A stretch of 64,000 bases of DNA from Bacilli bacterium (GCA_017435485.1 JAFSEY010000001.1:17197-81196), one strand, 5' to 3'. Positions 1-46,685 are shown, counted from the stretch's first letter. Program-made: numbers and translations. Notes: generated by a model not told the origin, from the letters alone.

Positions 1-987
1 TTTAATTTTAAAATAGATCCATCTAGCCAAAAAGGATTTGCAGAATATGAAATACATAATGAAGCAACCGTCCCAAACGGCATTGAAGTTGCCACTAGAA
101 GGCCTATTCATAATACGAAGGAGGATATTGCTAAATTTTGCGGTTTATGCGAATCCATGAAAGATATGGGATATTATTATAGTGAAGTTAGTCAAAACGC
201 TAGTGGACAAATTAATTTAGGGCTTGATTACTTAGATACTAAGGAAGCAATTTTAAATTTTTATGAAATATACAGTAATTGTGAAGAATTATTATATTAC
301 ATTAGCAATGAAGAAGGACAGCTTTTCAGACAAGATGTTTATGCTAATAGTCGAATAAAACCTATTTCAGAAATAATCGGAAAACGTATTTTAGATGAAG
401 AATTATCAAGAGATGAGGCTATTAAGTTATTTAATAATCGTTATGACTCTAATGATAGCGCAGTTGATGGATTACAATACAAAAAGAATTCAGTTTGTCT
501 TAGAGGAACAAATAGCAAAGATTATCGATTAGAATTTAGAATACCTAATGGTGGATGCAATTATAGAACATGGATTGATAATATTAGACTATTTGGCAAA
601 ATGATGGAAGTAGCAAAAAGACTTGCTGATATGATGAAAAAGGATTACCTATCTAGCGAAGAAGAGAATTTATTAAACCTAAAAATAAAACTGCAAGATA
701 ATAGTCTATCTTTGGAAGAAAAATTAGTGACAATTATGAATTTATTATTTAAAGATAATAATATAAAACAAATTTATTATAATAGATATAAAAGTACAAT
801 AAAAAGAATTAGAATGGATAATTCTAAGAAATATCTAAATAGTTATAACAATCCAGAACCAAATTTTGATGAAGTTGAGTTTATTGATCAATATCACTCA
901 AGATTTGACCCTGATTATAGCGGAGAAGGAATTGTCATAGAGTATGATCCTGAATATGGCATCATAAAACATAACAACAAAAAATAG
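1..987 (+). CDS. Putative amidoligase (COOH-NH2 ligase type 2)-like protein, 5'-partial
   Basis: Frame 1 is open from base 1 (FNFKIDPSSQKGF...EATVPNGIEVAT...) into the 157..987 ORF. Motifs ATVPNGIEV, NASGQINLG and RLEFRIPNG resemble the D/E-S-G-E, CG-H and EFR motifs of Amidoligase_2. Confidence 0.55.
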   Translation, partial: FNFKIDPSSQKGFAEYEIHNEATVPNGIEVATRRPIHNTKEDIAKFCGLCESMKDMGYYYSEVSQNASGQINLGLDYLDTKEAILNFYEIYSNCEELLYYISNEEGQLFRQDVYANSRIKPISEIIGKRILDEELSRDEAIKLFNNRYDSNDSAVDGLQYKKNSVCLRGTNSKDYRLEFRIPNGGCNYRTWIDNIRLFGKMMEVAKRLADMMKKDYLSSEEENLLNLKIKLQDNSLSLEEKLVTIMNLLFKDNNIKQIYYNRYKSTIKRIRMDNSKKYLNSYNNPEPNFDEVEFIDQYHSRFDPDYSGEGIVIEYDPEYGIIKHNNKK

Positions 988-1002
988 ACATTATGAAATG
1001 AT

Positions 1003-1045
1003 AAAAAAATGTAGACATATAAAAAGATATATTCTACGTTTTTTT
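1003..1045. terminator. Probable bidirectional intrinsic terminator
   Basis: A7-TGTAGA...TCTACG-T tract between convergent genes. Confidence 0.5.
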
Positions 1046-1050
1046 GTTAA

Positions 1051-1163
1051 AATAAAAACTTGATATTTCAATACCAAGCTTATCTTAACGAACACATTAG
1101 TTCGAATCATTCTATGGCACGATCTTAAAGGCAACTCCCAATTTTTTGTTTTTACACCTTTCC
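1051..1163. repeat. Junction J1: terminator + CGAAC/GTTCG inverted repeat + TGGCAC core (1115-1120) + conserved right arm
   Basis: Left part 1051-1120 matches 7507-7579; right part 1115-1162 matches 7166-7213. Confidence 0.75.
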
Positions 1164-1297
1164 GTTATATTTGTAAATAGAGGTATATAAATTTTATCTT
1201 CTTCACTAACTAATACAACAATATGATTATCATAAAATGGCAATAAGAATTCTACATCATTTAATAAAGATAATAATTTTAATTTTTTATCTTCCAT
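1112..1297 (-). CDS. Small hypothetical protein (MEDKK..., ~61 aa) ending at the J1 core
   Basis: SD GAAAGGA before ATG 1297; stop directly follows GTG CCA. Confidence 0.35.
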   Translation of the reverse strand: MEDKKLKLLSLLNDVEFLLPFYDNHIVVLVSEEDKIYIPLFTNITERCKNKKLGVAFKIVP

Positions 1298-1601
1298 TAT
1301 TTTATTTCCTTTCTTCAAAACTTAACTTCTCATCATTAAATACTAAATCAACAAATCTATGTGATACAACTTTATTTTTAACAACATCTATTTTTAAATT
1401 GCTGCCATCATTATATAACAACAATACCTTACTATAATGATACTAATTTACCTGTTTTATTTAATTTTATTTTCTTTTTTCTCATAAATAATACACCGAC
1501 TGGCATTATATAACAGAGAGTAAAGCAGAGCAATTTAAAATAATAAAGAAAGAAGTCAATATAAACTAATCAAGTAAAAGCAGACAATTTATAAAAAATA
1601 T

Positions 1602-1626
1602 AAAAAAGAGCCCACATAAAGGGCTC
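1602..1626 (-). terminator. Intrinsic terminator of the DUF2207 operon
   Basis: GAGCCC/GGGCTC hairpin with A-tract on the plus strand. Confidence 0.65.
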
Positions 1627-1652
1627 ATTATATTTAATTTAGGAATAAGTGA

Positions 1653-4124
1653 CTACCAAGAGCCACCTCCACCTCCACCAGAACCACCGCCTGATGAACC
1701 TCCACCTGATGATCCACCTCCACCACTAGAACTACTAGATGGGCTAGATGACATAGCACTTGTTGCTGATGACATAGTTGAATTTATAAAACTTCCAAAC
1801 GATGCAGTATTAAATGATGAATATCCATCATACCAATTTGGTGCTTGTAATGAAATTGTTTCAAACTTTTTAATCCATTTATCAGATACACCTAATACAT
1901 AAGTGAAAGGTAATATGTCATAAAAGTATGTTGGATTTTCCATTACCATAGCTTCTAATTTTTGTTTTTCTGCTGTTTCTAGGAAATTTTTAAATCCTTT
2001 TATTTTTCCTAACATTTCATTTCCATATTTAGTTCTTTTTGGCATCGCCTTAAATAATAAGATCATTGTTAAAATACATCCTAATCCAATTATATAAGCA
2101 ATTAAATAAATAGGTTCTGCTAATAATAATGGTAAAACCATGAATGCCCATGGTATACCACCAAATCCTAGTCCCCATATTAGACCAAATATCTTAACGG
2201 GAATAGGTGTTTTTCCAAATAACATTCCAAATAATACTGAAAAACCAATACCAGGGAAAATTATAGCAAAAGGTAACATTGCAATTCCACCATCTGATTC
2301 TATTACAGGTTTAATTGTAATTAATAAGAATGTTGCAATTATCATAACTATTACTAAAGCACCTTTTTTAAGAGATGATTTTTCAAATATTTTCTCTTTG
2401 TTTTTTTTGTTATTTATATTTGTTATTATTCTTCCCAAAGTTATATAAAAATTATCATATAAATCCATTGCAGTTACTTCTGTTATAGCACCAGTTGAAG
2501 ATGTTTCAGGAACTGACTGTGGATTTTTCATATAGTCAATCATATTTGAAAAACTTACTAATGATGATTTTGATGAAAATAATCCTTTTAAGAATAATGC
2601 CTCGTTTGGATTATTTCCGTCATATTCTCTTTGTTTAACAATTTTAAATCCTTTTGAAGTTGAGAATAAAGATTTTTCTTCAGTTTCAACAATTTTAATA
2701 TATCCTCTATTTGCAAGATAAATTAATAATGAAATTACATCTTTGTTTTCTACTTTTCCTTTATATAAAAATCCTACTTCAGCACTATTAAAACCTTGTG
2801 GTGGATAGAATTCTACAGTTTCAACAACTTGCTCATCTTTTCCAAATTTATTCCATAATAAGTATGTAATGAATACAAATAATAAAGGTAATACAATTGC
2901 TAGAATGCTCAATAAATCAATATTAAAACTAGCTCCTACAAAATATCCTTCAGGTAATTCTAGTCTAACAGTTAATGCCTCACCTGAACCAAGTGTACCA
3001 TTATATTTTCCACTTATAATATTACCATCAACATTATATGTAATTTTTAATGAATCGGTAGAACCAATAACTCCACTAGAAAAACCAAGTTTTGATGAGT
3101 CAAATTCTTTTGGCATTGTAATGGTAAATGTTATATTACTAATACTAGTATCCCATTCATCACCAATCAAATTAAAATATAACTCATCATATTCTTTTCC
3201 TGTATCTCTTCCTAAATTATAAAGATAACTAATTTCATAATTTTTTTGACCTGTTAAAGTATAGTTAGCATCACCAATTTTAATTACTTTATATCCACTT
3301 TCTGTTGATAAAGAATAATTATCACTAACTTCTATATCACTTATTTTAGCACGATTTTTTGATGTTGTACCATCAAGTCTTGTCACTTCATTTCTCAATG
3401 GTATTTTTCTAAATATTCCATGTTTTTCAACATTAAAATATGCACCAATTTTTTCAGTTATATTTAAAGTGTTGTTTTCATTAACAATTATATTTATATC
3501 ATAATTATTTAGAGTGTACTCTGAATTGCTATTATAGATTGTTGAATTATTATTTGTTAAATCTTCTTTAGAATCTTCATTATATATGTTTTGATTATTA
3601 TCTATTAAATTCTCATTCGAATCTTCAATATATACATTTTGATTATCATTATAATGATTTTCATCTTCATTAGAAATAGGAATATTTGCAGAAATTAATA
3701 TTTTATAATACATTATGTCATCAATAGAATTATTGCTAATAAAATTTGATTCATCAACACCGCAATAAAATGCAACTGCTGAATAACCCTTTCCTAAAAG
3801 ACTATCTTCTGAATCACAAATTGCTATTACTTCTTTATTTGAATCAAAAAATAATGTTTTTGTATAAATTGTGTCATTAAGATAATTAGGATTACTAAAA
3901 CTTCCAGAAATATATACTCTTTCAGAACCATTATAATTTTGACTTCCTACAAAAAAATTTAAAGACGCATCTACATTTTTTAATTTAATCAAATGAGATG
4001 TTTTATTATATTCATAATAATCACTGTTAATATCTAAAGCCTTAATTTTTGATGGGAAACCAAGAAATAAAGATATACATATAAATAACAGAACAAAACT
4101 AAATTTATTTATATATTTTTTCAT
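1653..4124 (-). CDS. DUF2207 family membrane protein
   Basis: ELYFNLIGDEWD motif, several TM segments, LPFTYVLG and a Gly/Ser-rich tail ending GGGGGGSW; adjacent to lemA. Confidence 0.85.
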   Translation of the reverse strand: MKKYINKFSFVLLFICISLFLGFPSKIKALDINSDYYEYNKTSHLIKLKNVDASLNFFVGSQNYNGSERVYISGSFSNPNYLNDTIYTKTLFFDSNKEVIAICDSEDSLLGKGYSAVAFYCGVDESNFISNNSIDDIMYYKILISANIPISNEDENHYNDNQNVYIEDSNENLIDNNQNIYNEDSKEDLTNNNSTIYNSNSEYTLNNYDINIIVNENNTLNITEKIGAYFNVEKHGIFRKIPLRNEVTRLDGTTSKNRAKISDIEVSDNYSLSTESGYKVIKIGDANYTLTGQKNYEISYLYNLGRDTGKEYDELYFNLIGDEWDTSISNITFTITMPKEFDSSKLGFSSGVIGSTDSLKITYNVDGNIISGKYNGTLGSGEALTVRLELPEGYFVGASFNIDLLSILAIVLPLLFVFITYLLWNKFGKDEQVVETVEFYPPQGFNSAEVGFLYKGKVENKDVISLLIYLANRGYIKIVETEEKSLFSTSKGFKIVKQREYDGNNPNEALFLKGLFSSKSSLVSFSNMIDYMKNPQSVPETSSTGAITEVTAMDLYDNFYITLGRIITNINNKKNKEKIFEKSSLKKGALVIVMIIATFLLITIKPVIESDGGIAMLPFAIIFPGIGFSVLFGMLFGKTPIPVKIFGLIWGLGFGGIPWAFMVLPLLLAEPIYLIAYIIGLGCILTMILLFKAMPKRTKYGNEMLGKIKGFKNFLETAEKQKLEAMVMENPTYFYDILPFTYVLGVSDKWIKKFETISLQAPNWYDGYSSFNTASFGSFINSTMSSATSAMSSSPSSSSSGGGGSSGGGSSGGGSGGGGGGSW

Positions 4125-4140
4125 TAGTCCTCCTTGTATA

Positions 4141-4689
4141 TTATAATTTTACTTGTACATTTTCTCTCTCAGATTCACTTGCTTCAAACATTTTTTGTTC
4201 TTTAAAACCTAACATTCCAGCAACAATATTACTTGGAAACATTTGAACTTTATCATTAAAAATTCTAACTGCACCATTGTAGTATTTTCTAGAGTTAGCA
4301 ATATCATCTTCAACCTTTGTTAATTGTTGACTTAAATCCTTAAAGTTTTCATTAGCTTTAAGGTCAGGGTATGCCTCAGCAATAGCCATTAATTTGTTAA
4401 TTCCTTGAGATAATTTATTATTTACATCAACTTTTTCATTAGCTGACATATTGTCATAAGTGCTATTTCTCAATTCAATAATTTCTTTTAATGTTGATTT
4501 TTCATGTTTAGCATATCCTTTTACAGTTTCAACAATATTAGGTATTAAATCCCATCTTTTCTTTAAATAAACATCCATTGTTGAAAATGCTTCTTTAACT
4601 GTATTATTCAATTTTACAAAACTATTATAAGTTATTCCAAAGTATATTAGAATTAAAACTATAATAGCTATAATTATATAAATCCACAT
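4141..4689 (-). CDS. lemA: LemA family protein
   Basis: N-terminal TM, KRWDLIPNIVETVKGYAKHE, AEAYPDLKANENF, SRKYYN, FPSNIVA. Confidence 0.92.
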   Translation of the reverse strand: MWIYIIIAIIVLILIYFGITYNSFVKLNNTVKEAFSTMDVYLKKRWDLIPNIVETVKGYAKHEKSTLKEIIELRNSTYDNMSANEKVDVNNKLSQGINKLMAIAEAYPDLKANENFKDLSQQLTKVEDDIANSRKYYNGAVRIFNDKVQMFPSNIVAGMLGFKEQKMFEASESERENVQVKL

Positions 4690-4701
4690 ATTTTAACCTC
4701 C

Positions 4702-5409
4702 TTACATATTTGTATTTATATTATTATTTTGATTATTTATATCAACACTTGAATTTGGTTGATTAATATTATTCATTTGTGATTGTCCAACATTATTCAT
4801 TGTTTGTGCAACTTGCTGATTATAAGTATTTGATTGTGGCTGATTAATATTATTCATCTGTTGTGCAACTTGTGGATTAATATTATTCATTTGTGGTTGA
4901 ACATCAATATTGCTATATAATCCATTTGTTTGTTCAACTGTTTGGTCTTCAATCATTTTTTGTGTTTTTCCTTTTTTGATACTAGAAATTACAGCAATTA
5001 CACCTACCAAAGTGAATAAAGCACCAAATATAGGTAAAATAATGTTGGTACTATCCGATGTCCAAATAGCATCTTGTGGATTATTTGGATTATATTTTAC
5101 TGAAACTTCTGTTCCAATACTTTTTGGCATATTTGAATATGAATTTGAAACCTTTTGATAAGTTTGTCCATTAACTACATACTCAACAACAATAGCTTGC
5201 AATCCCTCGTCATTATATTTATAATCAACAACCTTTGAAGTAGTCTCAACAAAATTTTCATTCTTTTCATTATAAGTTTTAATAGATGAAACTGCAAAAC
5301 ACAATAGTGCAATACCAACAATAACGAAAATCAATCCGAATAAAACTCCTTGCCATGGTTTCATTGGTTTAGCTTGAACCGTCCTACCTGTTGAAAAATT
5401 TATATGCAT
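4702..5409 (-). CDS. DUF3592-like membrane protein with Gln/Asn-rich repeat tail
   Basis: TM, beta domain (V-Y-V-G...V-V-YNPNNP), TM, then repeated MNNINQP units. Confidence 0.6.
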   Translation of the reverse strand: MHINFSTGRTVQAKPMKPWQGVLFGLIFVIVGIALLCFAVSSIKTYNEKNENFVETTSKVVDYKYNDEGLQAIVVEYVVNGQTYQKVSNSYSNMPKSIGTEVSVKYNPNNPQDAIWTSDSTNIILPIFGALFTLVGVIAVISSIKKGKTQKMIEDQTVEQTNGLYSNIDVQPQMNNINPQVAQQMNNINQPQSNTYNQQVAQTMNNVGQSQMNNINQPNSSVDINNQNNNINTNM

Positions 5410-5548
5410 ATGACACCTCCTTTTTTTTTGAAAATAAGGATACTATCTTACATCTAATGAAATAATATTAAAAGGTTAAAGTTGCATCCTATCATATTTA
5501 ATTATAACATACATTTTTCCAAATCTAGTCAGTAATGGCCAAAATTAT

Positions 5549-6037
5549 TTATTTTTTCTTGAAGTTTTTCACAAGAATAAAAATACCTGCAATCCAAAAG
5601 ATAAATGAAAAGAAAAACATTGAACTTCCACCATTAGACCAATCTTTAATAGCCGAATAGTCAAACACTATTAAAAAACCAAACCAAAAGATCAAAAAAC
5701 CGAAAATATAAAGTTTATTAGTGAAGTTATCTGCTTTTATAAGTTTTTTATGAGTTTTTTCAATCTCAACTGCATTAGAGAAATTACCATCTTCTACATC
5801 TTTAACAGCTTTCATCATATTAATTCCTTGAAATAAAAGTGAAAGCCCTTTAATCAATACAGCAATTCCACAAATTAAAAATGGAATGATAACCACTCTT
5901 GTAAATGTATCAGCGCCTTTAATAAAAACCAAAAAACAAAAACCTGAAAATACTAATCCACCAATAATTGTTCCGATTGAACTAAATAATGTTATAAATG
6001 CTTCTGTTTTGACATCGTTAATTTGATTATTATTCAT
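5549..6037 (-). CDS. Hypothetical 4-TM membrane protein
   Basis: GGAGG SD before ATG 6037 (MNNNQI); hydrophobic segments. Confidence 0.7.
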   Translation of the reverse strand: MNNNQINDVKTEAFITLFSSIGTIIGGLVFSGFCFLVFIKGADTFTRVVIIPFLICGIAVLIKGLSLLFQGINMMKAVKDVEDGNFSNAVEIEKTHKKLIKADNFTNKLYIFGFLIFWFGFLIVFDYSAIKDWSNGGSSMFFFSFIFWIAGIFILVKNFKKK

Positions 6038-6139
6038 TTTAAACCTCCTTATTATTACAATAACCATTATAACACGTATAATGTTAAACATAAAGATTTC
6101 AAACATCAAATTTTGATTTCTTTATGTTTTTTGTTATTA

Positions 6140-6320
6140 TAACAAACATCGGTAAAGACGGATTATAACAGGCACTTCGAGTGCGTTCTTATGAATGTCT
6201 GCCATATGATTATTTATTAATTCGGTTGTAGATAATGGAACGAAAGAGTTCGGATGATTAAGCGTGTAGGAATATAGGTAATTCAATGTGATGTTAACCG
6301 AAATATTTATGAAAGGAGAA
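6140..6320 (+). ncRNA. Candidate IS110 bridge-RNA-like structured non-coding end
   Basis: ~180-nt GC-richer leader of the IS110 remnant with two large stem-loops: AGAC 6156/GTCT 6197 enclosing a GCAC-TTCGA-GTGC hairpin, and TTCGGTT 6221/AACCGAA 6296 enclosing GAAC-GAAAGA-GTTC. Confidence 0.4.
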
Positions 6321-6324
6321 ATTA

Positions 6325-6610
6325 ATGAAACATATTTTAAGTTTTGATATTGCTAAAAGAAAAAGTGTGTATTGTTTTATTGATGAATTAAGAAATACAA
6401 TTATTGATGCCACATTAATTGAACATATAATAAAAATGAATTTGATAAATTATATAATTTAATTAAAGACTATTCAAATTTAATTGTATTAATGGAATCT
6501 ACTTCTATTTATCATTTGCCAGTTGAAAATTATTTTAGGTCTAAAGGTATAGATACTGTTGTTATTAATCCTAAACTTGTTAAACAATTTAAAGATACCT
6601 TAAATAAATT
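6325..6610 (+). pseudogene. IS110-family transposase, N-terminal DEDD fragment (frameshifted, truncated)
   Basis: SD AAGGAG, then MKHILSFDIAK...; after a frameshift, LMESTSIYHLPVENYF...VINPKLVKQF. Breaks off near 6610, where it abuts the start of a minus-strand gene (AGGAGG-ATG ATT AGA). Confidence 0.8.
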
Positions 6611-6808
6611 TTTTCTAATCATACACATCCTCCTTCTGTAAAATAAAAAGAGTCAAAATAGGCAGAATAATTCCGTATCATTGACTCTTATAAAATAATT
6701 TTTGTAAAAAAGTAATTTTAGACATGAAGTATCCATCCTTTCAGAAAAAGACGATACTGCTATCTTTATCTAATATAATTTTACTTTTTATTCTTTGTTA
6801 AGTCAATA

Positions 6809-7084
6809 TTACGACAATTTTTTAAGATAATCTTCTAAATCTTTTAGCAAAACTTTATTATTTAAGTTATTTATATAGACTTCATTAGAATAATTAAAGA
6901 ATAGAATTAAAATATCTTTTAAAATGGCTTTATTAGGCTCTATATAATACAAATTCGTTCTATCTAGGCTAATTATATTCTCACATTCAAAAGTGGGCTT
7001 AAATCCACAAAATTTGCATATAAAGTCTATTCTTTGTTTCAGTTTGTCATCAATATTAACTTTCTTTTTCTTAAAATTTAGCAT
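6809..7084 (-). CDS. Hypothetical protein, paralogue of 9306..9500, adjacent to junction J2
   Basis: KLKQRIDFICKF...TNLYYIEPN...KDI aligns with ELKRKVEMVCKF...TNIAMVKPH...KDI. Confidence 0.65.
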   Translation of the reverse strand: MLNFKKKKVNIDDKLKQRIDFICKFCGFKPTFECENIISLDRTNLYYIEPNKAILKDILILFFNYSNEVYINNLNNKVLLKDLEDYLKKLS

Positions 7085-7087
7085 ATA

Positions 7088-7213
7088 AAAAATCCAACCT
7101 TTCTAAAGATTGGATTCCTTTATATTAAAGTTCGATTTTTTTAAAAGTTCGAACAGAAATGCAAATGGCACGATTTTAAAGACAATTCCCAATTTCTTGT
7201 TTTTACACCTTTC
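7088..7213. repeat. Junction J2 (terminator, GTTCGAAC, TGGCAC core 7166-7171, right arm shared with J1)
   Basis: TGGCACGATTTTAAAGACAATTCCCAATTTCTTGTTTTTACACCTTTC versus J1 TGGCACGATCTTAAAGGCAACTCCCAATTTTTTGTTTTTACACCTTTC. Confidence 0.75.
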
Positions 7214-7220
7214 TTATTTA

Positions 7221-7487
7221 TTATTTATGTAATCTTTTACTAAATCCTTTATCATAGGATTCTATATTTTCTTTTTCCATTATTAATTTACCAATTCTTG
7301 ATTCACAAAATTGTAGAAAAGATAAATATTTTTGTTTTTCATAATCTAATGAGTCTTTTATATATATCGGTGTCTTTTTTCCAACAATAGGCATATGGCT
7401 GGCTTCATTTTTCTGTCTCATTTTATTAATTAAAGCTTCTGCACCAATACGAGCTTCCTTACTGATTGCTACTTTTGCTTCGTTCAT
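7221..7487 (-). CDS. Hypothetical protein (88 aa), sole gene of the J2-J3 mini-cassette
   Basis: GGAGG SD, ATG; basic C-terminus. Confidence 0.65.
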   Translation of the reverse strand: MNEAKVAISKEARIGAEALINKMRQKNEASHMPIVGKKTPIYIKDSLDYEKQKYLSFLQFCESRIGKLIMEKENIESYDKGFSKRLHK

Positions 7488-7506
7488 TTAAAACCCTCCC
7501 TAAACT

Positions 7507-7585
7507 AATAAAAACTTGATACTTTCGTACCAAGTTTCATATTAACGAACACATTGATTCGACTAAATCACAATGGCACCCTTAT
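7507..7585. repeat. Junction J3 (terminator, CGAA/TTCG repeat, TGGCAC core 7574-7579)
   Basis: AATAAAAACTTGAT...TACCAAG...TTAACGAACACATT..TTCGA...ATGGCAC shared with J1. Confidence 0.75.
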
Positions 7586-7757
7586 GGTGAAAGTATAACA
7601 AACACTAGATGCAAATTTGTAGATAATAATAACTACTAACTGATATAAGTATATCACATATTTTTACAAAAATAACAAATATTTTATAAAAAAAGTAGGT
7701 TTAATAATAAAATACGATAAAAAAATGTTATAATATATATATATTGGAGGTTTTATT

Positions 7758-8072
7758 ATGTGTGAAGAAGAATATGTTTTAGTATCAATTAATGAAGAAA
7801 ATAAATATGTATTTGTAGAAAAACAAACTTTTGCCCTAAAAAGTAAGGAAGCAATGAATGCCCATGCTAACTTTAATAATTTAAAAAGCAAGTTTGCTAT
7901 GGAACAACCATTATACGGTTATAGCATGGTAGAAGTTAAAAGAACAAAAAATGATAATCAATCTTTAAATGGTTCGAATTATGATTTTGTAGGTATGGTA
8001 GAATTTGATATTCGCGAAGTAAATCCAGCAGATATAAATGTAATACCTAATAAATTTGGAGGAAAAATGTAA
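7758..8072 (+). CDS. Hypothetical protein
   Basis: GGAGG SD; TAATG coupling to the next ORF. Confidence 0.7.
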   Translation: MCEEEYVLVSINEENKYVFVEKQTFALKSKEAMNAHANFNNLKSKFAMEQPLYGYSMVEVKRTKNDNQSLNGSNYDFVGMVEFDIREVNPADINVIPNKFGGKM

Positions 8073-9091
8073 TGGACATTAACCAACTAAAAATAATTTT
8101 GGAAGAAACACAACAAAAATACCCACCACATTATCCAACTAAAACACATGGAATTACTGATGAGGTTCCTATTTTACTAAATAATTTAAAAAAAGTGGTA
8201 GATTATATTGGATTTTCAAATGCTAATATAGCTGTTAAAAATATTGTAGGTAAAACAATTAATGAATTTTTGATAAGTTCACGTCATGGATTAAATAAAA
8301 ATAATTGTGATTTTGAAATAGAAAATAAAGACATCGAAAATGGTAAAAAAATAACAATTAGTTACAGCGATAAATCATTAGAGTTAGAATATCTAAACAA
8401 TGGTGTCATAACAATTACAAACAATTCAGATTGTCCATTTTTAGCATATGGAGAAGATTACTCTAATGCTATTATTTCATATGATAGTAATAAACCAAAT
8501 AATTTATTTTTAAATCAAATATTTCAAAATAAATCTACTTGTCAATCAATTATGACTTTTAACGAAGTGGGAATTGAAATAAATAAAGAATTTAAAATTA
8601 TTCCAAGAACAAGAACATTTCAAGCAACAACTCAATGTATAACAGGTTCAATTACAAGAAAAGATGATTTTTACACTGCAAGTATTAAATTAAATGTAAT
8701 AGGAAGAGATTTTGGTAATATAATATCTGAAGAAGATATTAATATGATAAGTTCTATTCCAGAAATTACTGTTCCAATTAGTTATATGGGAGCATTAAAA
8801 AATGATTTAAATTTACTTTATGTAGTTTGTGCTGATGACAGAAATAGTTTAAGGACTGGTGCAATAGAAAGTCTAATTGGAAATTATATTTATAGCGAAG
8901 AAGATAGTTATTCTTTTGCTGAACATTATGAAGAAAGTAAAAAAGTTATAGAATATAGTAATTTTCTTGAATTCAAATATAATTCGTTTAATACTGGAGC
9001 GCCTATGATTCATGCACCATATTCATTTGAAATATTAGAAAATATAAAAGGATATGTACATAAACAAGAAAATAGACCACATATAAAATAA
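8072..9091 (+). CDS. Hypothetical protein (339 aa)
   Basis: Long ORF coupled to the upstream gene; no motif recognised. Confidence 0.75.
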   Translation: MDINQLKIILEETQQKYPPHYPTKTHGITDEVPILLNNLKKVVDYIGFSNANIAVKNIVGKTINEFLISSRHGLNKNNCDFEIENKDIENGKKITISYSDKSLELEYLNNGVITITNNSDCPFLAYGEDYSNAIISYDSNKPNNLFLNQIFQNKSTCQSIMTFNEVGIEINKEFKIIPRTRTFQATTQCITGSITRKDDFYTASIKLNVIGRDFGNIISEEDINMISSIPEITVPISYMGALKNDLNLLYVVCADDRNSLRTGAIESLIGNYIYSEEDSYSFAEHYEESKKVIEYSNFLEFKYNSFNTGAPMIHAPYSFEILENIKGYVHKQENRPHIK

Positions 9092-9270
9092 AAGCCGTGG
9101 CACGTTTTGCTCGCTTGCGAGTGAAAGTGGCGATAGGCTTTTTCTTTTATTTTCATTACGAAGTTTTGAAAATGAAAACATAATTTTGCTTGGCTTTAGG
9201 TAAAGAAAGTTATGCTTATTTAGGGTTTCAAAAGGGATTTGCCCTTTGCACACCGTTATTGGCTTTGCCA
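9092..9270. other. Structured non-coding segment, oriT-like candidate
   Basis: AAGCC...GGCTT enclosing CTCGC-TT-GCGAG; AAAGGGATTTGCCCTTTG resembles ICE 24914-24938; also a TGGCAC at 9098. Confidence 0.3.
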
Positions 9271-9305
9271 TTAGCGTAGTGTGTTACTCTTTTGGATTCA
9301 AAAAA

Positions 9306-9500
9306 TCAAAATATAAGAAAATCAATATCTTTAATTCTAACTATGTGTGGTTTAACCATAGCAATATTTGTATTTTTAATACTTTTGATACTTCCATTTA
9401 TAATCGTATAATCTACATAAGCAAACTTACAAACCATTTCTACCTTTCTTTTTAATTCTTCACTTATTACAAGTTCTTTAGTTTCTATTGTCATACTCAA
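9306..9500 (-). pseudogene. Probably truncated paralogue of 6809..7084, adjacent to junction J4
   Basis: 64 aa versus 91 aa; similarity runs up to the stop; SD AGGAAAGTGA before TTG. Confidence 0.5.
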
Positions 9501-9523
9501 TCACTTTCCTTTCTTAAATAACA

Positions 9524-9617
9524 AAAAAACTAACTATTTCTAGTTAGCATTTATTACTTAAACTCGAAAAGTTCGAGTTTCCTATCAATCTGGCACGGAA
9601 ATCGAACGGGTTTCCAA
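9524..9617. repeat. Junction J4 (terminator, AAACTCGAA/TTCGAGTTT repeat, TGGCAC core 9591-9596, TCGAAC)
   Basis: Same architecture as J1-J3. Confidence 0.6.
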
Positions 9618-9620
9618 ATT

Positions 9621-10214
9621 TTATCCAACTTGATTCAACCAATCCCTAATATTCATACATAACCTTTCAATATCATATGTACCCAATTCTCCACTGTGCA
9701 TAATCACATTTCTTGATCTATCTATAGTTGTAAATATTTGTTTTACCCATTCGATAGAAATAATAAAATCTTCGAACGATTCCAAATTATTATACATGAT
9801 GTTAGATAAATCCGTAATTTCTGTATAATTTATCAAGGACTCTCCTCTTTGATTATGCCACTTAATTTTATCTTCTTCGGCCTTTCGACTTTCAGCTTTT
9901 TTTCTTATTTTGTCAGACACACTATGCTCCCACCAATTTTCTCCATACTTTTCTTGCAAAATCTTCGTTACAAAATCCCTTGCACTATTTTCAAAAGAAG
10001 CTATTGCAACATAAACACTTGCCATCATTTTGGCTCTTTCAACTATATTTTGATCCATTCTATCTAGTGGGAGTTTTTTTAATGTTTCACCATTTAACAA
10101 CAAGTCAACTGTAGACGCATTACTTTTTTGTGCATTTGATACGTTTTTATCATCCAAAGATAATTTTGTTAAATTTCCTCTATAAACAAATGAATATAAA
10201 TCCATAATAATCAC
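9621..10214 (-). CDS. Swt1-like HEPN domain protein (putative RNase)
   Basis: AIASFENSARDFV...YGENWW, YTEITDLSNIM and RNVIMH (R-x4-H) motifs. Confidence 0.8.
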   Translation of the reverse strand: MIIMDLYSFVYRGNLTKLSLDDKNVSNAQKSNASTVDLLLNGETLKKLPLDRMDQNIVERAKMMASVYVAIASFENSARDFVTKILQEKYGENWWEHSVSDKIRKKAESRKAEEDKIKWHNQRGESLINYTEITDLSNIMYNNLESFEDFIISIEWVKQIFTTIDRSRNVIMHSGELGTYDIERLCMNIRDWLNQVG

Positions 10215-10847
10215 CTAATAAAGATTTTTTTTAATACTTTTAAAAATTGCATCATAAACCATATCATCCCTTGTTTCTGGTAAATGAATATGAATATCAT
10301 AATGTAAAGATGGCCCCATCTGAGCAACATTTAGTTGAAGATTATCCCTATTTATTTCTTCTTTTTGTGTATCGTTTTTTTCAATTGGTTCACCTACAGA
10401 TTGCATTGTATTTTCCAGCGGAATAGAAAAATCAGCTAAATCACATAAAGCTTTAAAAGTCATAGCCATTAAAGATAATACTTTGTCAGTTTTTTGTCCC
10501 TGAGTGAGTGTTTTAAATTTGTTTTTAACCTCACTAACATCTAACTTATTTGCAGATTTGTTAATATTAAATAGATCACTATATGCTTCCTTAATACCAT
10601 CGGCTAACACCTTTTTATATTTTGTTTGATCTAAAAATTCATAATATCTTTGTGTTGGTGCTCCATTATCATCTAACAATCCTAATGATTTAAATACACC
10701 TACAAACAGTCTATCATTTGAACTAGTAAAACCCAAGTCATTTAAAAACTTATAAGTGAATCTCTCTGGAGCCTGTGCTCCTAAAACTGAATTAATCAAA
10801 CTTTCTAAATTTTTAGTCGTAACTAAGTACGAAGTACATAATGCCAT
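10215..10847 (-). CDS. DUF5343 domain protein
   Basis: AQAPERFTYKFLNDLGF.SSNDR...LGLLD.NG.PT and C-terminal LHYDIHIHLP pattern. Confidence 0.75.
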   Translation of the reverse strand: MALCTSYLVTTKNLESLINSVLGAQAPERFTYKFLNDLGFTSSNDRLFVGVFKSLGLLDDNGAPTQRYYEFLDQTKYKKVLADGIKEAYSDLFNINKSANKLDVSEVKNKFKTLTQGQKTDKVLSLMAMTFKALCDLADFSIPLENTMQSVGEPIEKNDTQKEEINRDNLQLNVAQMGPSLHYDIHIHLPETRDDMVYDAIFKSIKKNLY

Positions 10848-10990
10848 AATATTTCCTCCTTTTAAATCAAAAATAGTTATTTTTTATAATATCACTATTT
10901 TAAACAATATGGAAGTTTTTATTATCAAACCCGTAATATTTATACTACAATGCATTAATATTACACTCCAAGCATCTTCAAAATATAAAT

Positions 10991-11025
10991 AAAAAAAGCA
11001 CTGTTTCTAATATAGAAACCGTGCT
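10991..11025 (-). terminator. Terminator downstream of the tRNA-Trp 3' end
   Basis: AGCAC-TGTTTCT...AGAAAC-CGTGCT hairpin with A7 on the plus strand. Confidence 0.7.
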
Positions 11026-11064
11026 AATGTATGTTACTCCATAATTTTGGAGTTTGTTTACTTC

Positions 11065-11108
11065 TGGCAGGGGCGGAGAGAATCGAACTCCCAACAGTGG
11101 TTTTGGAG
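11065..11108 (-). pseudogene. 3' half of host tRNA-Trp(CCA); ICE left junction
   Basis: Minus strand CTCCAAAACCACTGTTGGGAGTTCGATTCTCTCCGCCCCTGCCA: anticodon loop, T-arm, acceptor 3' strand and CCA, with no D-arm. Confidence 0.9.
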
Positions 11109-11213
11109 TAATTGATAAGTCAACTCCAAACACTTCAAAACCCCATAAATCCTAGTAAAACGACTTACAACAAATTACGAAATAAATCGGTTTACTAGGG
11201 TTTATTAGATTGA

Positions 11214-11234
11214 TTTGCCACCAAAAGTGCCACC
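11214..11234. promoter_or_regulatory. Putative integrase arm-type site (left end)
   Basis: TTTGCCACCAAAAGTGCCACC; near-copy at 46552-46572. Confidence 0.65.
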
Positions 11235-11373
11235 AGATGACTACTAAAACGACAACTATGGTCTTTTGGACTATATTACAATCTAATACCCATAACTTGA
11301 TACAAATTTAAACTCCAAACATTTTTGTTTTTTACAAAATATATTATATCACTTTTTATAATTATTTGGAATA

Positions 11374-12999
11374 CTATACCATTATTTTTTCTTGATAAAG
11401 CTCAATATCATCTATTGGCTTTAAATCAAAATAAGCACCATTAGATGCCGAAATAATGGTATCAATAAAAGCATCTAATTGTTCCTTATTTAATGATTCT
11501 ATAAAACTAGCTATATCTTTTAACTTTGGATCTAATTCAAATAAATAATTTCTTGCAACACTAACTGCTTTTGGTAAAGATAATGTATCAATAGGTTCAC
11601 CCATTAATTGATCTAGAGCAGAATAAATCTTATCCATATCAGTTAAGTTAATACCTGTTATGATTGAATATACACTTAAAAGATTATCCTTTATATCTTT
11701 TTCTTTATTTGTTATAAATTTAGCATATTCAGATTTATTCTCACTAATAGATAATGTAAGCTCTAAATAATCAGTTATCTTTTCATCTTGCACCATACTA
11801 CTATGAGTATATATCTTTAAAGTAGTAGCAGGTTCCGAATGACCTAATCTACGAGCAACATCTTGTAGTGGAACTCCAATAGACAATAAATAAGTAGCAT
11901 GGCTATGTCTTATATCATGTATAGTAATTTTTCTTAATTTATTTTGAGAAACAAACTTATTCCATTCTTTAGTAAGATAATTTGGATCCCAAACTTTTTC
12001 AGCATCTAAAGTTTTAAATATATAATCTTCATCAGTAGGATTGAATCCATTTTTTATTTGTTCTTCTTTATACTTCATTAACAAATCATAACAATCCATA
12101 ATGACACTAATATCTCTTTTACTTTTATCAGTTTTAAGTTTTTTACATACAAGACCATTGCTTAACTTTTCTATAATATCTTCTTCATTTATATTTTCAT
12201 CAGTTACACGAATAATCTCTCTTCTAACTGCAAGATGAAACTTTTTCTTTACTTCTCTTATACCTTTAACAAATACAGGTTTAGATATAATTTTTAAATC
12301 TTTCCATTTAAGACCAATTAATTCACCTCTACGAAGTCCTGTATTAAACAACAAATAAATAGCACAACGAAATCTCAAATTACATGGCTCTAATAAATCA
12401 AAAGTAGTAAGCATTTCTTCATAACCATAATATTCTCGTTCTTGACTATTATATGTTGGTGCATCAAGAACATAGTCTGCAGGATTTGAAAGAATCCATT
12501 TTTTCTTTTTAGCATAGTTATACATTGATTTAATTAATTTATGAACATGAGTAATATATGTTTCAGTAAGTGGCTCACCAGTTTTTGGATTAATACTTTT
12601 TCTCATTTTAGCATATAAGTTTTCTAAATCTGATTCTTCAATATTTCTTATTTTATTATCCCCAAGCTCTGGTAGTATCCAATTATTTAATAAATTCTTA
12701 TATCCCTGAATAGTAGTTGGGGATCTTTTTTTGTATTTAGTATCATTAAGATAAAATTCAGCAAGTTGAGTTAATGTATAGCCACTATTTTGTTCTTTAA
12801 GACCTTCATCTTTTTTCTTCTTTTGAAGTTCTTTAATTTCATCTCTACGAGCAATAGCATCATCTTCAGTACCATATATTCTTTCTACAATTCTATCACG
12901 AGTCCCATCATCACGAAAGCCATTACTGACTTCGATTCTATAAACACCATCGGCTTCCTTATAAATATTTTTTAAACGATTATCTTTAATTTTTCCTAT
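11374..12999 (-). CDS. int: Tyrosine integrase (ICEBs1/Tn916-like), probable ATA start, ~541 aa
   Basis: TGLRRGELIGLKW, HDIRHSHAT, LGHS..TTLKIY. Frame is open 131 codons upstream of the track start, encoding an arm-binding-like domain (GVYRIEVSNGF...); SD AGGTGG 7 nt before ATA 12999. Confidence 0.92.
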   Translation of the reverse strand: MGKIKDNRLKNIYKEADGVYRIEVSNGFRDDGTRDRIVERIYGTEDDAIARRDEIKELQKKKKDEGLKEQNSGYTLTQLAEFYLNDTKYKKRSPTTIQGYKNLLNNWILPELGDNKIRNIEESDLENLYAKMRKSINPKTGEPLTETYITHVHKLIKSMYNYAKKKKWILSNPADYVLDAPTYNSQEREYYGYEEMLTTFDLLEPCNLRFRCAIYLLFNTGLRRGELIGLKWKDLKIISKPVFVKGIREVKKKFHLAVRREIIRVTDENINEEDIIEKLSNGLVCKKLKTDKSKRDISVIMDCYDLLMKYKEEQIKNGFNPTDEDYIFKTLDAEKVWDPNYLTKEWNKFVSQNKLRKITIHDIRHSHATYLLSIGVPLQDVARRLGHSEPATTLKIYTHSSMVQDEKITDYLELTLSISENKSEYAKFITNKEKDIKDNLLSVYSIITGINLTDMDKIYSALDQLMGEPIDTLSLPKAVSVARNYLFELDPKLKDIASFIESLNKEQLDAFIDTIISASNGAYFDLKPIDDIELYQEKIMV

Positions 13000-13010
13000 A
13001 CTAACACCAC

Positions 13011-46376: not shown

Positions 46377-46450
46377 TGGCAGGGGCATCAGGATTTGAAC
46401 CCGAATAGATGGTTTTGGAGACCACTATGTTACCATTACATCATGCCCCT
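46377..46450 (-). tRNA. trnW: tRNA-Trp(CCA), intact, inside the ICE
   Basis: 74 nt AGGGGCATGATGTAATGGTAACATAGTGGTCTCCAAAACCATCTATTCGGGTTCAAATCCTGATGCCCCTGCCA folds into a full cloverleaf with encoded CCA. Confidence 0.95.
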
Positions 46451-46572: not shown

Positions 46573-46647
46573 ACTTTGAAAGAGTAGTTTTAACAAAGTC
46601 AATGTTTATAAGGGTTAAATTGGCATTTAATCTCTCAATAACAAGAG

Positions 46648-46685
46648 TTTTGGAGACCATTATTATACCATTTAACTACGCCCCT
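46648..46685 (-). pseudogene. 5' half of host tRNA-Trp(CCA); ICE right junction
   Basis: Minus strand AGGGGCGTAGTTAAATGGTATAATAATGGTCTCCAAAA: acceptor 5' strand, D-arm and anticodon loop, then non-tRNA sequence. Confidence 0.9.

Follow-up and report, generated by a model that had tools for sequence, protein, structure and literature searches.

Introduction

Several known systems stack mobile modules in tandem at the end of a conserved gene. In Dehalococcoides, islands lie one behind another downstream of the tRNA-like gene ssrA and are attributed to the large serine recombinase (LSR) DsiB (McMurdie et al. 2011, PMC3146451); they have 20-bp repeats, a crossover in the T-loop and an integration module of six genes (DsiA, RecF, ParB, Mom and others), and some islands without this module are read as cis-mobilizable (PMC3146451). 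In Firmicutes, integrative and conjugative elements (ICEs), as well as integrative and mobilizable elements (IMEs), grow by accretion, in which an element decays to a cis-mobilizable element (CIME) flanked by attachment (att) sites and a new element joins the att site at the target end, giving tandems (PMC5704250). According to the same review, sites at gene ends and tRNA ends belong to tyrosine integrases, and site-specific IMEs with serine recombinases insert inside genes and disrupt them (PMC5704250). Here we analyze a 64,000-nt stretch of a Bacilli bacterium genome (GCA_017435485.1, JAFSEY010000001.1:17197-81196, i.e. contig C11:17197-81196; hereafter the window), in which the 10 kb behind the native tRNA-Trp gene are four or five separately inserted modules, each joined at a copy of the tRNA CCA end. 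We consider it likely that positions 1045-11108 of the window formed by tandem accretion of site-specific integrative modules at this CCA end, with an LSR as the most probable enzyme. The array consists of decayed LSR elements and recombinase-less cassettes stacked in tandem.

Comparison with known systems

Like the Dehalococcoides islands, the array is a tandem behind a tRNA-like gene, each unit bounded by a repeat of the gene's 3' end; a CcrB-like LSR lies beside one att site, and some members of the stack lack an integration module. The differences are equally clear. The Dehalococcoides islands use a single target, ssrA, with a 20-bp repeat and a T-loop crossover, whereas here the repeats do not exceed 7 bp, are placed at the CCA end, and are found with many tRNA genes and with tmRNA. 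Their integration module has six genes, while a 91-aa protein, an LSR and a protein of about 409-441 aa are found here, the first and last being orphans. Finally, those islands measure many kilobases, and the units described here go down to 400 bp and one gene.

Staphylococcal cassette chromosome elements (SCC, SCCmec) also dock serially at the 3' end of a conserved gene, rlmH (orfX), with short direct repeats between units, and include recombinase-less units (pseudo-SCC) that rely on a recombinase in trans. Here, a tRNA or tmRNA end takes the place of rlmH as target, and the units are far smaller. The LSR scores only 97-119 bits against the NCBIfam equivalog models of CcrA, CcrB and CcrC, whose cut-offs are 700-900; thus, it is not a Ccr and the array is not an SCC. 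The accretion concept is the same as that proposed for ICEs, IMEs and CIMEs, although tRNA-end cases in that literature use tyrosine integrases; segments 7172-7573 and 9597-11064 of the window, which have both arm types, no recombinase and a tandem position, have the properties of CIMEs.

The preliminary description of this DNA called the array integron-like. It does resemble integrons and clusters of attC sites lacking integrases (CALIN) in that cassettes of one gene, mostly without a promoter, are stacked where docking is fixed, and each ends in a conserved recombination site. However, there is no IntI, attC hairpin or attI, the att arms are of the double-stranded type, docking is at a tRNA end, and the enzyme that fits best, an LSR, is unrelated. 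No attC R''-L''/L'-R' symmetry was seen by inspection and none was reported by Rfam, a dedicated attC model not being among the tools used. The integron label was therefore abandoned: the array resembles SCC and Dehalococcoides ssrA islands more than an integron, and it is best filed among LSR-dependent tandem islands and cassettes as a variant not previously known. What is new relative to known LSR islands is the crossover at the CCA end, the range of targets (many tRNA species and tmRNA), the different gene set and the single-gene units of 400-900 bp. A literature search of limited range found no description of this tRNA-end LSR element family.

Junctions and module boundaries

The source genome (G000) comprises 14 contigs and 1,085,144 bp with 27% G+C. 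The sequence TGGCAC marks four junctions in the window, J1 to J4, at 1115-1120, 7166-7171, 7574-7579 and 9591-9596. We read them on the minus strand, where the sequence upstream of the core is the right arm and that downstream of it the left arm. The pattern GTGCCA-N5-20-TCGAAY has four matches in the window, all on the minus strand (expected 0.00, 100 shuffles), and a search of the whole genome returned the same four only, all within window positions 1100-9596, while GTGCCA and TCGAAY taken singly have 104 and 406 copies. Thus, the motif is not a general terminator feature, and its genome-wide occurrence at ordinary terminators, which the preliminary description had named as the finding that would speak against it, is excluded.

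The spacings from GTGCCA to TCGAAY are 9, 13, 11 and 14 nt. Behind every junction, and likewise in the trailer of the displaced tRNA 3' half at 11065, the sequence folds into a small hairpin and, after it, a terminator hairpin with its U run (fold z-scores -3.4 to -4.7). An Rfam E-value scan of positions 1-13000 found no RNA family. The arms form a mosaic: the right arms of J1 and J2 match at 86% (1114-1171 vs 7165-7222) and the left arms of J1 and J3 at 81-84% (1051-1112 vs 7507-7569). Segment 7172-7573 carries two J1-type half-sites at its ends, so that its circularisation would recreate J1. The anatomy originally proposed, namely four TGGCAC junctions of one layout, with TCGAA(C/T) 9-14 nt after (G)TGCCA and then a terminator, and with J1 resembling J3 on the left and J2 on the right, is confirmed by these data; the modules, 7172-7573 among them, have their ends exactly where that description placed them. 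The features of the array, from the tRNA end outward, are the following.

11065-11108, minus strand: displaced 3' part of native tRNA-Trp, 100% match to its positions 31-74; the CCA at 11067-11065 is the array anchor and attB-side half
10985-11064, minus strand: left arm of cassette 1, hairpin ACUCCA..UGGAGU plus terminator (-20.9 kcal/mol, z -4.68)
9597-10847, minus strand: cargo and beta-type right arm of cassette 1 (Pfam)
10215-10847, minus strand: DUF5343 gene of cassette 1 (Pfam)
9621-10214, minus strand: Swt1-like HEPN gene of cassette 1 (Pfam)
9597-9621, minus strand: beta-type right arm of cassette 1, AAATTTGGAAACCCGTTCGATTTCC, aligning with the beta block of locus L069 and the right arm in genome G011
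9591-9596, minus strand: J4 core GTGCCA(G), motif match
9515-9590, minus strand: left arm of module 2, GATTGATAGGAAACTCGAACTTTTCGAG hairpin plus terminator
7580-9500, mixed strands: body of module 2, whose right arm ends ...CACCATAAGG
9306-9500, minus strand: 64-aa gene of module 2, first after J4
8072-9091, plus strand: 339-aa orphan gene of module 2, no family matches
7758-8072, plus strand: 104-aa orphan gene of module 2, no family matches
7574-7579, minus strand: J3 core GTGCCA(T), motif match
7172-7573, minus strand: cassette 3, 402 bp, both ends being halves of a J1-type site
7573-7505, minus strand: left arm of cassette 3, type A_L, followed by a ribosome-binding site
7221-7487, minus strand: 88-aa orphan gene of cassette 3
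7213-7165, minus strand: 49-nt alpha block of cassette 3, core included
7166-7171, minus strand: J2 core GTGCCA(T), motif match
6606-7165, minus strand: head of module 4, homologous to an element of genome G284
7165-7085, minus strand: left arm of module 4, type B_L
6809-7084, minus strand: 91-aa partner gene
ATG at 6622-6620, homology end at about 6606, minus strand: promoter region and first 5 codons of an LSR gene
6140-6622, plus strand: insertion sequence (IS)-like remnant abutting the break in the LSR gene, where the G284 homology stops (6606)
1163-6109, minus strand: rest of module 4, with a 186-aa gene, DUF3592, LemA, DUF2207 and a 61-aa open reading frame (ORF) (Pfam)
1114-1162, minus strand: alpha block including the J1 core GTGCCAT, the P-arm of an att site, 87-92% identical in seven other genera
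1045-1113, minus strand: distal A_L-type arm, hairpin CGAAC..GUUCG plus terminator, followed by a convergent 553-aa gene

The DUF5343 and Swt1-like HEPN genes (9621-10847) form a gapless pair in the first cassette behind the tRNA end and are a candidate toxin or defence pair carried as att-flanked cargo. The remainder of module 4 (1163-6109) may be cargo or a fused second module. Its 61-aa ORF (1112-1297) has no Pfam match and runs into the alpha block, which supplies the last ~16 codons and the stop; it is probably a truncated gene fused to an att arm and not a real product. A 45-aa fragment of the IS-like remnant (6140-6622) had no match in Pfam.

Gain, loss and reassortment in relatives

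We compared the locus with four other species of the same genus (G001-G004). In G001, tRNA-Trp is 100% identical and the distal 553-aa gene 94% identical to those of the source genome. Between these shared anchors the source genome has 10 kb, and G001 has one different module, consisting of another left arm with an IS3-type insertion (assembly break), a 288-aa gene and alpha block-GTGCCAT-A_L. The distal A_L-type arm (1045-1113) is kept beside the same 553-aa gene. G002, G003 and G004 each diverge right after the CCA of tRNA-Trp. The presence/absence alignment, a check named beforehand in the preliminary description, thus shows that gain and loss coincide with TGCCA.

J1 and J2 share as right arm a distinct block of 49 nt, GAAAGGTGTAAAAACAAGAAATTGGGAATTGCCTTTAAAATCGTGCCAT, which we call the alpha block. 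It is 87-92% identical in seven other genomes representing seven genera of the same family, and its boundaries are sharp: the 5' end lies just after the stop codons of unrelated genes and the 3' end at GTGCCAT. A scan of one genome per prokaryotic species yielded about 20 true carriers, all of them gut metagenome-assembled genomes labelled Bacilli, Mollicutes, "Clostridium sp. CAG:914" or Ca. Coprovivens. In at least 10 carriers, the alpha block is 420-880 nt downstream of tRNA-Trp on the same strand, and the single gene in between varies (NUDIX, HD, two different GNATs and several orphans).

Three other origins of the alpha block were considered and rejected. The pattern had no match in viral contigs, and a phage origin was dropped. 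A decayed copy of tRNA-Trp is not supported, because the sequence upstream of TGCCAT scores at the shuffled level against four tRNA-Trp genes (p 0.21-0.84). Nor is the block a mini-ORF or a gene C-terminus, since it is preceded by different genes and its TTG start is not kept (TTA in G001).

The left arms, like the right arms, recombine freely. A_L follows the CCA of tRNA-Trp directly in G135, G219, G231 and L064, where the arrangement is tRNA-TGCCAT-A_L-ribosome-binding site-gene-alpha block-GTGCCAT-A_L-...; it follows the alpha block at window J1 and in G001, G284, G135, L064 and L069, and other right arms at window J3 and in G284. Similarly, B_L, which is J2's left arm, stands behind the alpha block in the window and behind a 3' part of tRNA-Trp in G284. 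In G033 and G001, TGCCAT is followed by a hairpin arm, ACTCCAA..TTGGAGT, that resembles the left arm of cassette 1. The layout of cassette 3 recurs with other genes inside in G135, G231, G284 and L064. Thus, many pairings of right and left arms exist, and the joint between them is (G/C)TGCCA(T/G) every time, a hallmark of site-specific crossover at the end of the tRNA. Together with the breakpoints in relatives, this reassortment bears out the serial insertion at the tRNA-Trp CCA end proposed at the outset.

An apparently empty site in G011 belongs to the same pattern. Behind its tRNA-Trp (L010 900-1370, minus strand) lie an A_L-like arm, a gene of ~110 aa that looks MazG-like by eye and a beta-type right arm, AAATTTGAAAATCCCTTTTGATTCC-CTGCCAAT; G011 thus carries one cassette as well. 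As for the "nucleotidyltransferase cassette" of G001 and G033, it was rejected as one travelling unit: its arms are ~90% identical, and the cargo shares only a 35-aa stretch.

Could such junctions arise with no dedicated recombinase, through homologous recombination, duplication or gene conversion between functional intergenic units, GTGCCA being an RNA motif that mimics a tRNA end? The left arms are indeed good terminators placed just before ribosome-binding sites, they are sometimes nearly identical within a genome, and the alpha block is ~90% conserved across genera. However, on either side of CCA the homology stops abruptly, and it does so in numerous combinations and behind numerous tRNAs; the direct repeats that bound the elements do not exceed 7 bp, and the same arms adjoin LSR genes (see below). 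The junctions have no Rfam match, and the similarity of the alpha block to tRNA-Trp beyond TGCCAT is non-significant (p 0.2-0.8). We regard this explanation as very improbable. An IS200/IS605-type insertion 3' of TGCCAT was also rejected, as the ends lack similar subterminal hairpins (by inspection only, with no scan for Y1 transposases).

Large serine recombinases and the 91-aa partner gene

Window positions 7170-6606 are 95.4% identical over 565 nt to an element in G284, which has the order B_L arm, 91-aa gene, 642-aa LSR (Resolvase, Recombinase and Zn-ribbon domains), 409-aa orphan and right arm ending GTGCCAT. The homology ends 17 nt past the LSR start codon, beside the IS-like remnant, leaving 5 codons. 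It follows that the array is not recombinase-free by origin. The preliminary description had stated that positions 1-11064 encode no recombinase, which is correct for intact genes but overlooks the LSR start with its 5 codons (6622-6606) and the partner gene (6809-7084). Its view of the array as integrase-free does not survive: module 1121-7165 is a decayed autonomous element with a truncated LSR gene, and the first gene of module 7580-9590, the 64-aa gene after J4, is a distant paralogue of the 91-aa gene (27-31% identity by tblastn).

Further paralogues of the 91-aa gene in the source genome lie behind tRNA-Gly (TCC) and behind two tRNA-Leu genes, and there is one decayed copy. The tRNA-Gly element, on contig C13, is 6.4 kb long, contains the 91-aa paralogue, an intact 612-aa LSR and a 441-aa protein, and is bounded by 7-bp GCTCCAT repeats. 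In 60 relatives, homologues of the 91-aa gene occupy 25 loci, and at 18 of these a tRNA gene (Thr, Leu, Trp, Gly, Met or Cys) or a tmRNA gene precedes the homologue by ~100 nt on the same strand. When aligned, these junctions have one architecture: T-arm, acceptor strand, CCA, 10-14 nt, a CTCGAAC..TCGAG hairpin, terminator, ribosome-binding site and gene.

The same arm types stand behind 6 of the 32 tRNA and tmRNA genes called by ARAGORN in the source genome, in addition to the split native tRNA-Trp that carries the array. They are tmRNA, Arg-CCG, Thr-CGT, Gly-TCC, Leu-CAA and Leu-TAG (C2:23029, C3:22370, C13:105885, C13:99699, C12:10033 and C14:566), each with an arm of type GATTGATAGGAAACTCGAAC... 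or ..ATCTGTTCGAACTATTCGAAC... directly after the CCA. The element family is thus present at about a fifth of the tRNA ends of this genome. The left arm of J4 is near-identical to the sequences that follow CCA in tRNA-Arg (CCG) and tmRNA of the same genome, and in tRNA-Gly (G007), tRNA-Cys (G003) and tRNA-Leu (G018) elsewhere.

Both arm types are linked to LSR genes. In L047, an alpha block lies 44 nt behind a 541-aa LSR gene, and in G033 a 557-aa LSR gene is directly upstream of a related right arm ending GTGCCAT; the two LSRs are 50% identical. Elements encoding Resolvase and Recombinase domains (with or without the Zn-ribbon) beside an att end are thereby found in G284, G033, L047 and on C13 of the source genome. 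The identity between attL and attR is very short, the 7-bp GCTCCAT at tRNA-Gly and (G/C)TGCCA(T/G) at tRNA-Trp, and across different tRNAs the left-arm boundary falls immediately after CCA. TGCCA, originally proposed as the joining sequence, is the tRNA-Trp version of a family-wide CCA; sister elements of the source genome have GCTCCA at tRNA-Gly and GCACCA at tRNA-Leu.

The sequence ACAGGGGGTTGACAAATATAA is kept upstream of the alpha block behind LSR genes in L047 (5800-5882), L069 (1-80) and L012 (G301; 930-960). It contains a perfect TTGACA, 17 nt before a TAAAAA inside the alpha block, and may serve as a promoter directed outward, through the att site, toward the DNA downstream. The 91-aa protein has no matches in Pfam, PHROGs or NCBIfam, and its AlphaFold model is of low confidence (mean pLDDT 59.5); a role as directionality factor or regulator is our guess. 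The 409-441-aa orphans beside the LSR had no family matches.

The split tRNA-Trp gene and neighboring tyrosine integrases

ARAGORN finds a single tRNA-Trp in the window, at 46377-46450, and this is not the native gene. Native tRNA-Trp, which is whole and 97-100% identical in G001-G004, is split here, with positions 1-39 at 46647-46685 and positions 31-74 at 11065-11108. An element of ~35 kb lies between the halves. Its insertion point is the anticodon loop, where the two halves overlap by 9 nt, and the native gene is not restored; the element's own complete tRNA-Trp (46377-46450) is only 75% identical to the native one. TGCCA does form the last 5 nt of the tRNA at 11065, as had been noted, but that piece is only the displaced 3' part (positions 31-74). 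The array begins at the CCA of this part, so that its site is distinct from the anticodon-loop site, as claimed earlier. The same arrangement, with the end of an element beside the 3' part of tRNA-Trp, is seen in G231 and G284. An element that carries its own tRNA-Trp is reminiscent of the "tRNA-dependent lysogeny" of phages (PMC10865867).

The element has a tyrosine integrase gene at 11374-12606, only 300 nt from the array, and it is tyrosine integrases that usually act at tRNA 3' ends (PMC5704250). The joints might hence be ascribed to a tyrosine recombinase, whether this integrase, a Xer-like protein or an IntI-like enzyme, making the array a classical tRNA island or an integron-like one. 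In G002, moreover, a 314-aa tyrosine recombinase gene lies directly behind tRNA-Trp (L083, G002:C2 330-1440). Yet the site of the neighboring integrase is the anticodon loop (9-nt overlap), and in G135 and G219 cassettes are present with an intact tRNA-Trp and no element of the 35-kb type there. The source genome has only two tyrosine recombinases, the anticodon-loop integrase and a Xer-like protein on another contig. The identity segment of at most 7 bp is typical of serine integrases and not of tRNA-targeting tyrosine integrases, and no dif-like or attC-like symmetry was seen by inspection. While the neighboring 35-kb element has the properties of a tyrosine-integrase tRNA island, the array does not, its right arm showing no significant similarity to the tRNA beyond TGCCAT. 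We give this alternative hardly any credence.

The G002 enzyme itself has no orthologue above 32% identity in cassette-bearing genomes, nor a close one in the other genomes checked, and was ruled out as the array enzyme. Its gene is bracketed by inverted copies of the hairpin GTTCGTGAAAATGATTTGCTTTCACGAAC. A Xer/dif-type site, as used by integrative mobile elements exploiting Xer (IMEX) or of the pdif-like kind, was rejected because no dif-like arms were seen by inspection.

Proposed mechanism of accretion

The reading that we favor, accretion by an LSR at the CCA end, would proceed as follows. A module would enter as a circle whose attP consists of a right arm ending ..TGCCA and a left arm made up of 9-14 nt, the TCGAAC hairpin, the terminator and the ribosome-binding site of the first gene. 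Recombination with the tRNA end would take place within or beside CCA, and each newer module would displace the older ones outward, leaving a (G/C)TGCCA(T/G) joint between each pair. In this family, small elements composed of the 91-aa protein, the LSR and the ~409-441-aa protein would dock behind many tRNA and tmRNA genes.

The T-loop GTTCGA is 15 nt before CCA, and the TCGAAC of the element is 9-14 nt after it; the two form an inverted repeat centered near the discriminator/CCA position. The symmetry noted in the preliminary description is therefore real, and it recurs at many tRNAs. Probably, the LSR recognises GTTCGA in the tRNA and its inverse, TCGAAC, in the element. Such a repeat fits the dimer-bound site of a serine integrase and would explain the many tRNA targets.

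Loss of the LSR gene would leave att-flanked cassettes, and this loss is visibly under way in module 1121-7165. Segments 7172-7573 and 9597-11064, recombinase-less with att arms around cargo, would be movable only with an LSR acting in trans. Loss of cassette 3 would leave the empty joint ...CACCATAAGG-GTGCCAT-TTGCATTTCTGTTCGAAC.

Several observations weigh against this model. The array has no intact LSR. The 94%-complete assembly also contains none of the G033/L047 clade, the sole intact LSR being that on C13, which is 40% identical to this clade; the alpha-block cassettes are thus without a cognate enzyme in this assembly, and the recombinase in trans postulated earlier is hypothetical at present. 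The 88-aa gene of cassette 3 occurs in all other public contigs in the same context only. Left arms within one genome are sometimes near-identical (in L064 they differ at 1 of 65 nt, and in G135 their first 36 nt are the same), which also suggests gene conversion or homologous exchange within the arms. Right arms are heterogeneous. Serine integrases normally do not reuse attL as a target, and serial docking would need the tRNA half-site and, as we assume, a permissive second half.

The same decay could also account for the whole array, the junctions being scars only and every module a deletion remnant of an autonomous LSR element, never mobile as a cassette. Decay is plain to see in module 4, all that module 2 retains is a diverged partner gene, and the decay route is described for CIMEs (PMC5704250). 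On the other hand, one and the same slot holds, in different genera, at least 10 unrelated genes, each alone between the 49-nt arm and the ~65-nt left arm, and independent decay would seldom yield such uniform minimal units. The flanking arms in L064, differing by 1 nt in 65, suggest recent events. On balance, we think this explanation unlikely.

A bolder extension of the LSR model is possible, and we offer it tentatively. RF39-like gut Bacilli might possess an integron-like gene-capture platform, in which LSRs encoded elsewhere, on small tRNA-end elements, would capture, stack and exchange recombinase-less cassettes, mostly of a single gene, at the tRNA-Trp CCA end. The cassette attP would then be ~120 bp long (49-nt alpha block, GTGCCAT and a 65-nt left arm with terminator and ribosome-binding site), and the LSR family would recognise the universal geometry of T-loop...CCA, so that nearly every tRNA or tmRNA gene could serve for docking.

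Biological implications

Reviews place the tRNA-end niche with tyrosine integrases, and docking of LSRs there would differ from this picture. If the proposed mechanism is correct, serine recombinases can dock at tRNA CCA ends in general and not at one specific gene. Natural pairs of LSR and att site with short, tRNA-defined cores would be available, with possible interest as recombination tools. It would also constitute a second, enzymatically unrelated route to integron-like gene stacking. Bacteria of the gut with tiny genomes would, by this route, gather accessory genes as minimal att-flanked cassettes behind tRNA-Trp; the cassette genes seen encode the HEPN/DUF5343 pair and NUDIX, GNAT, HD and nucleotidyltransferase-like proteins.

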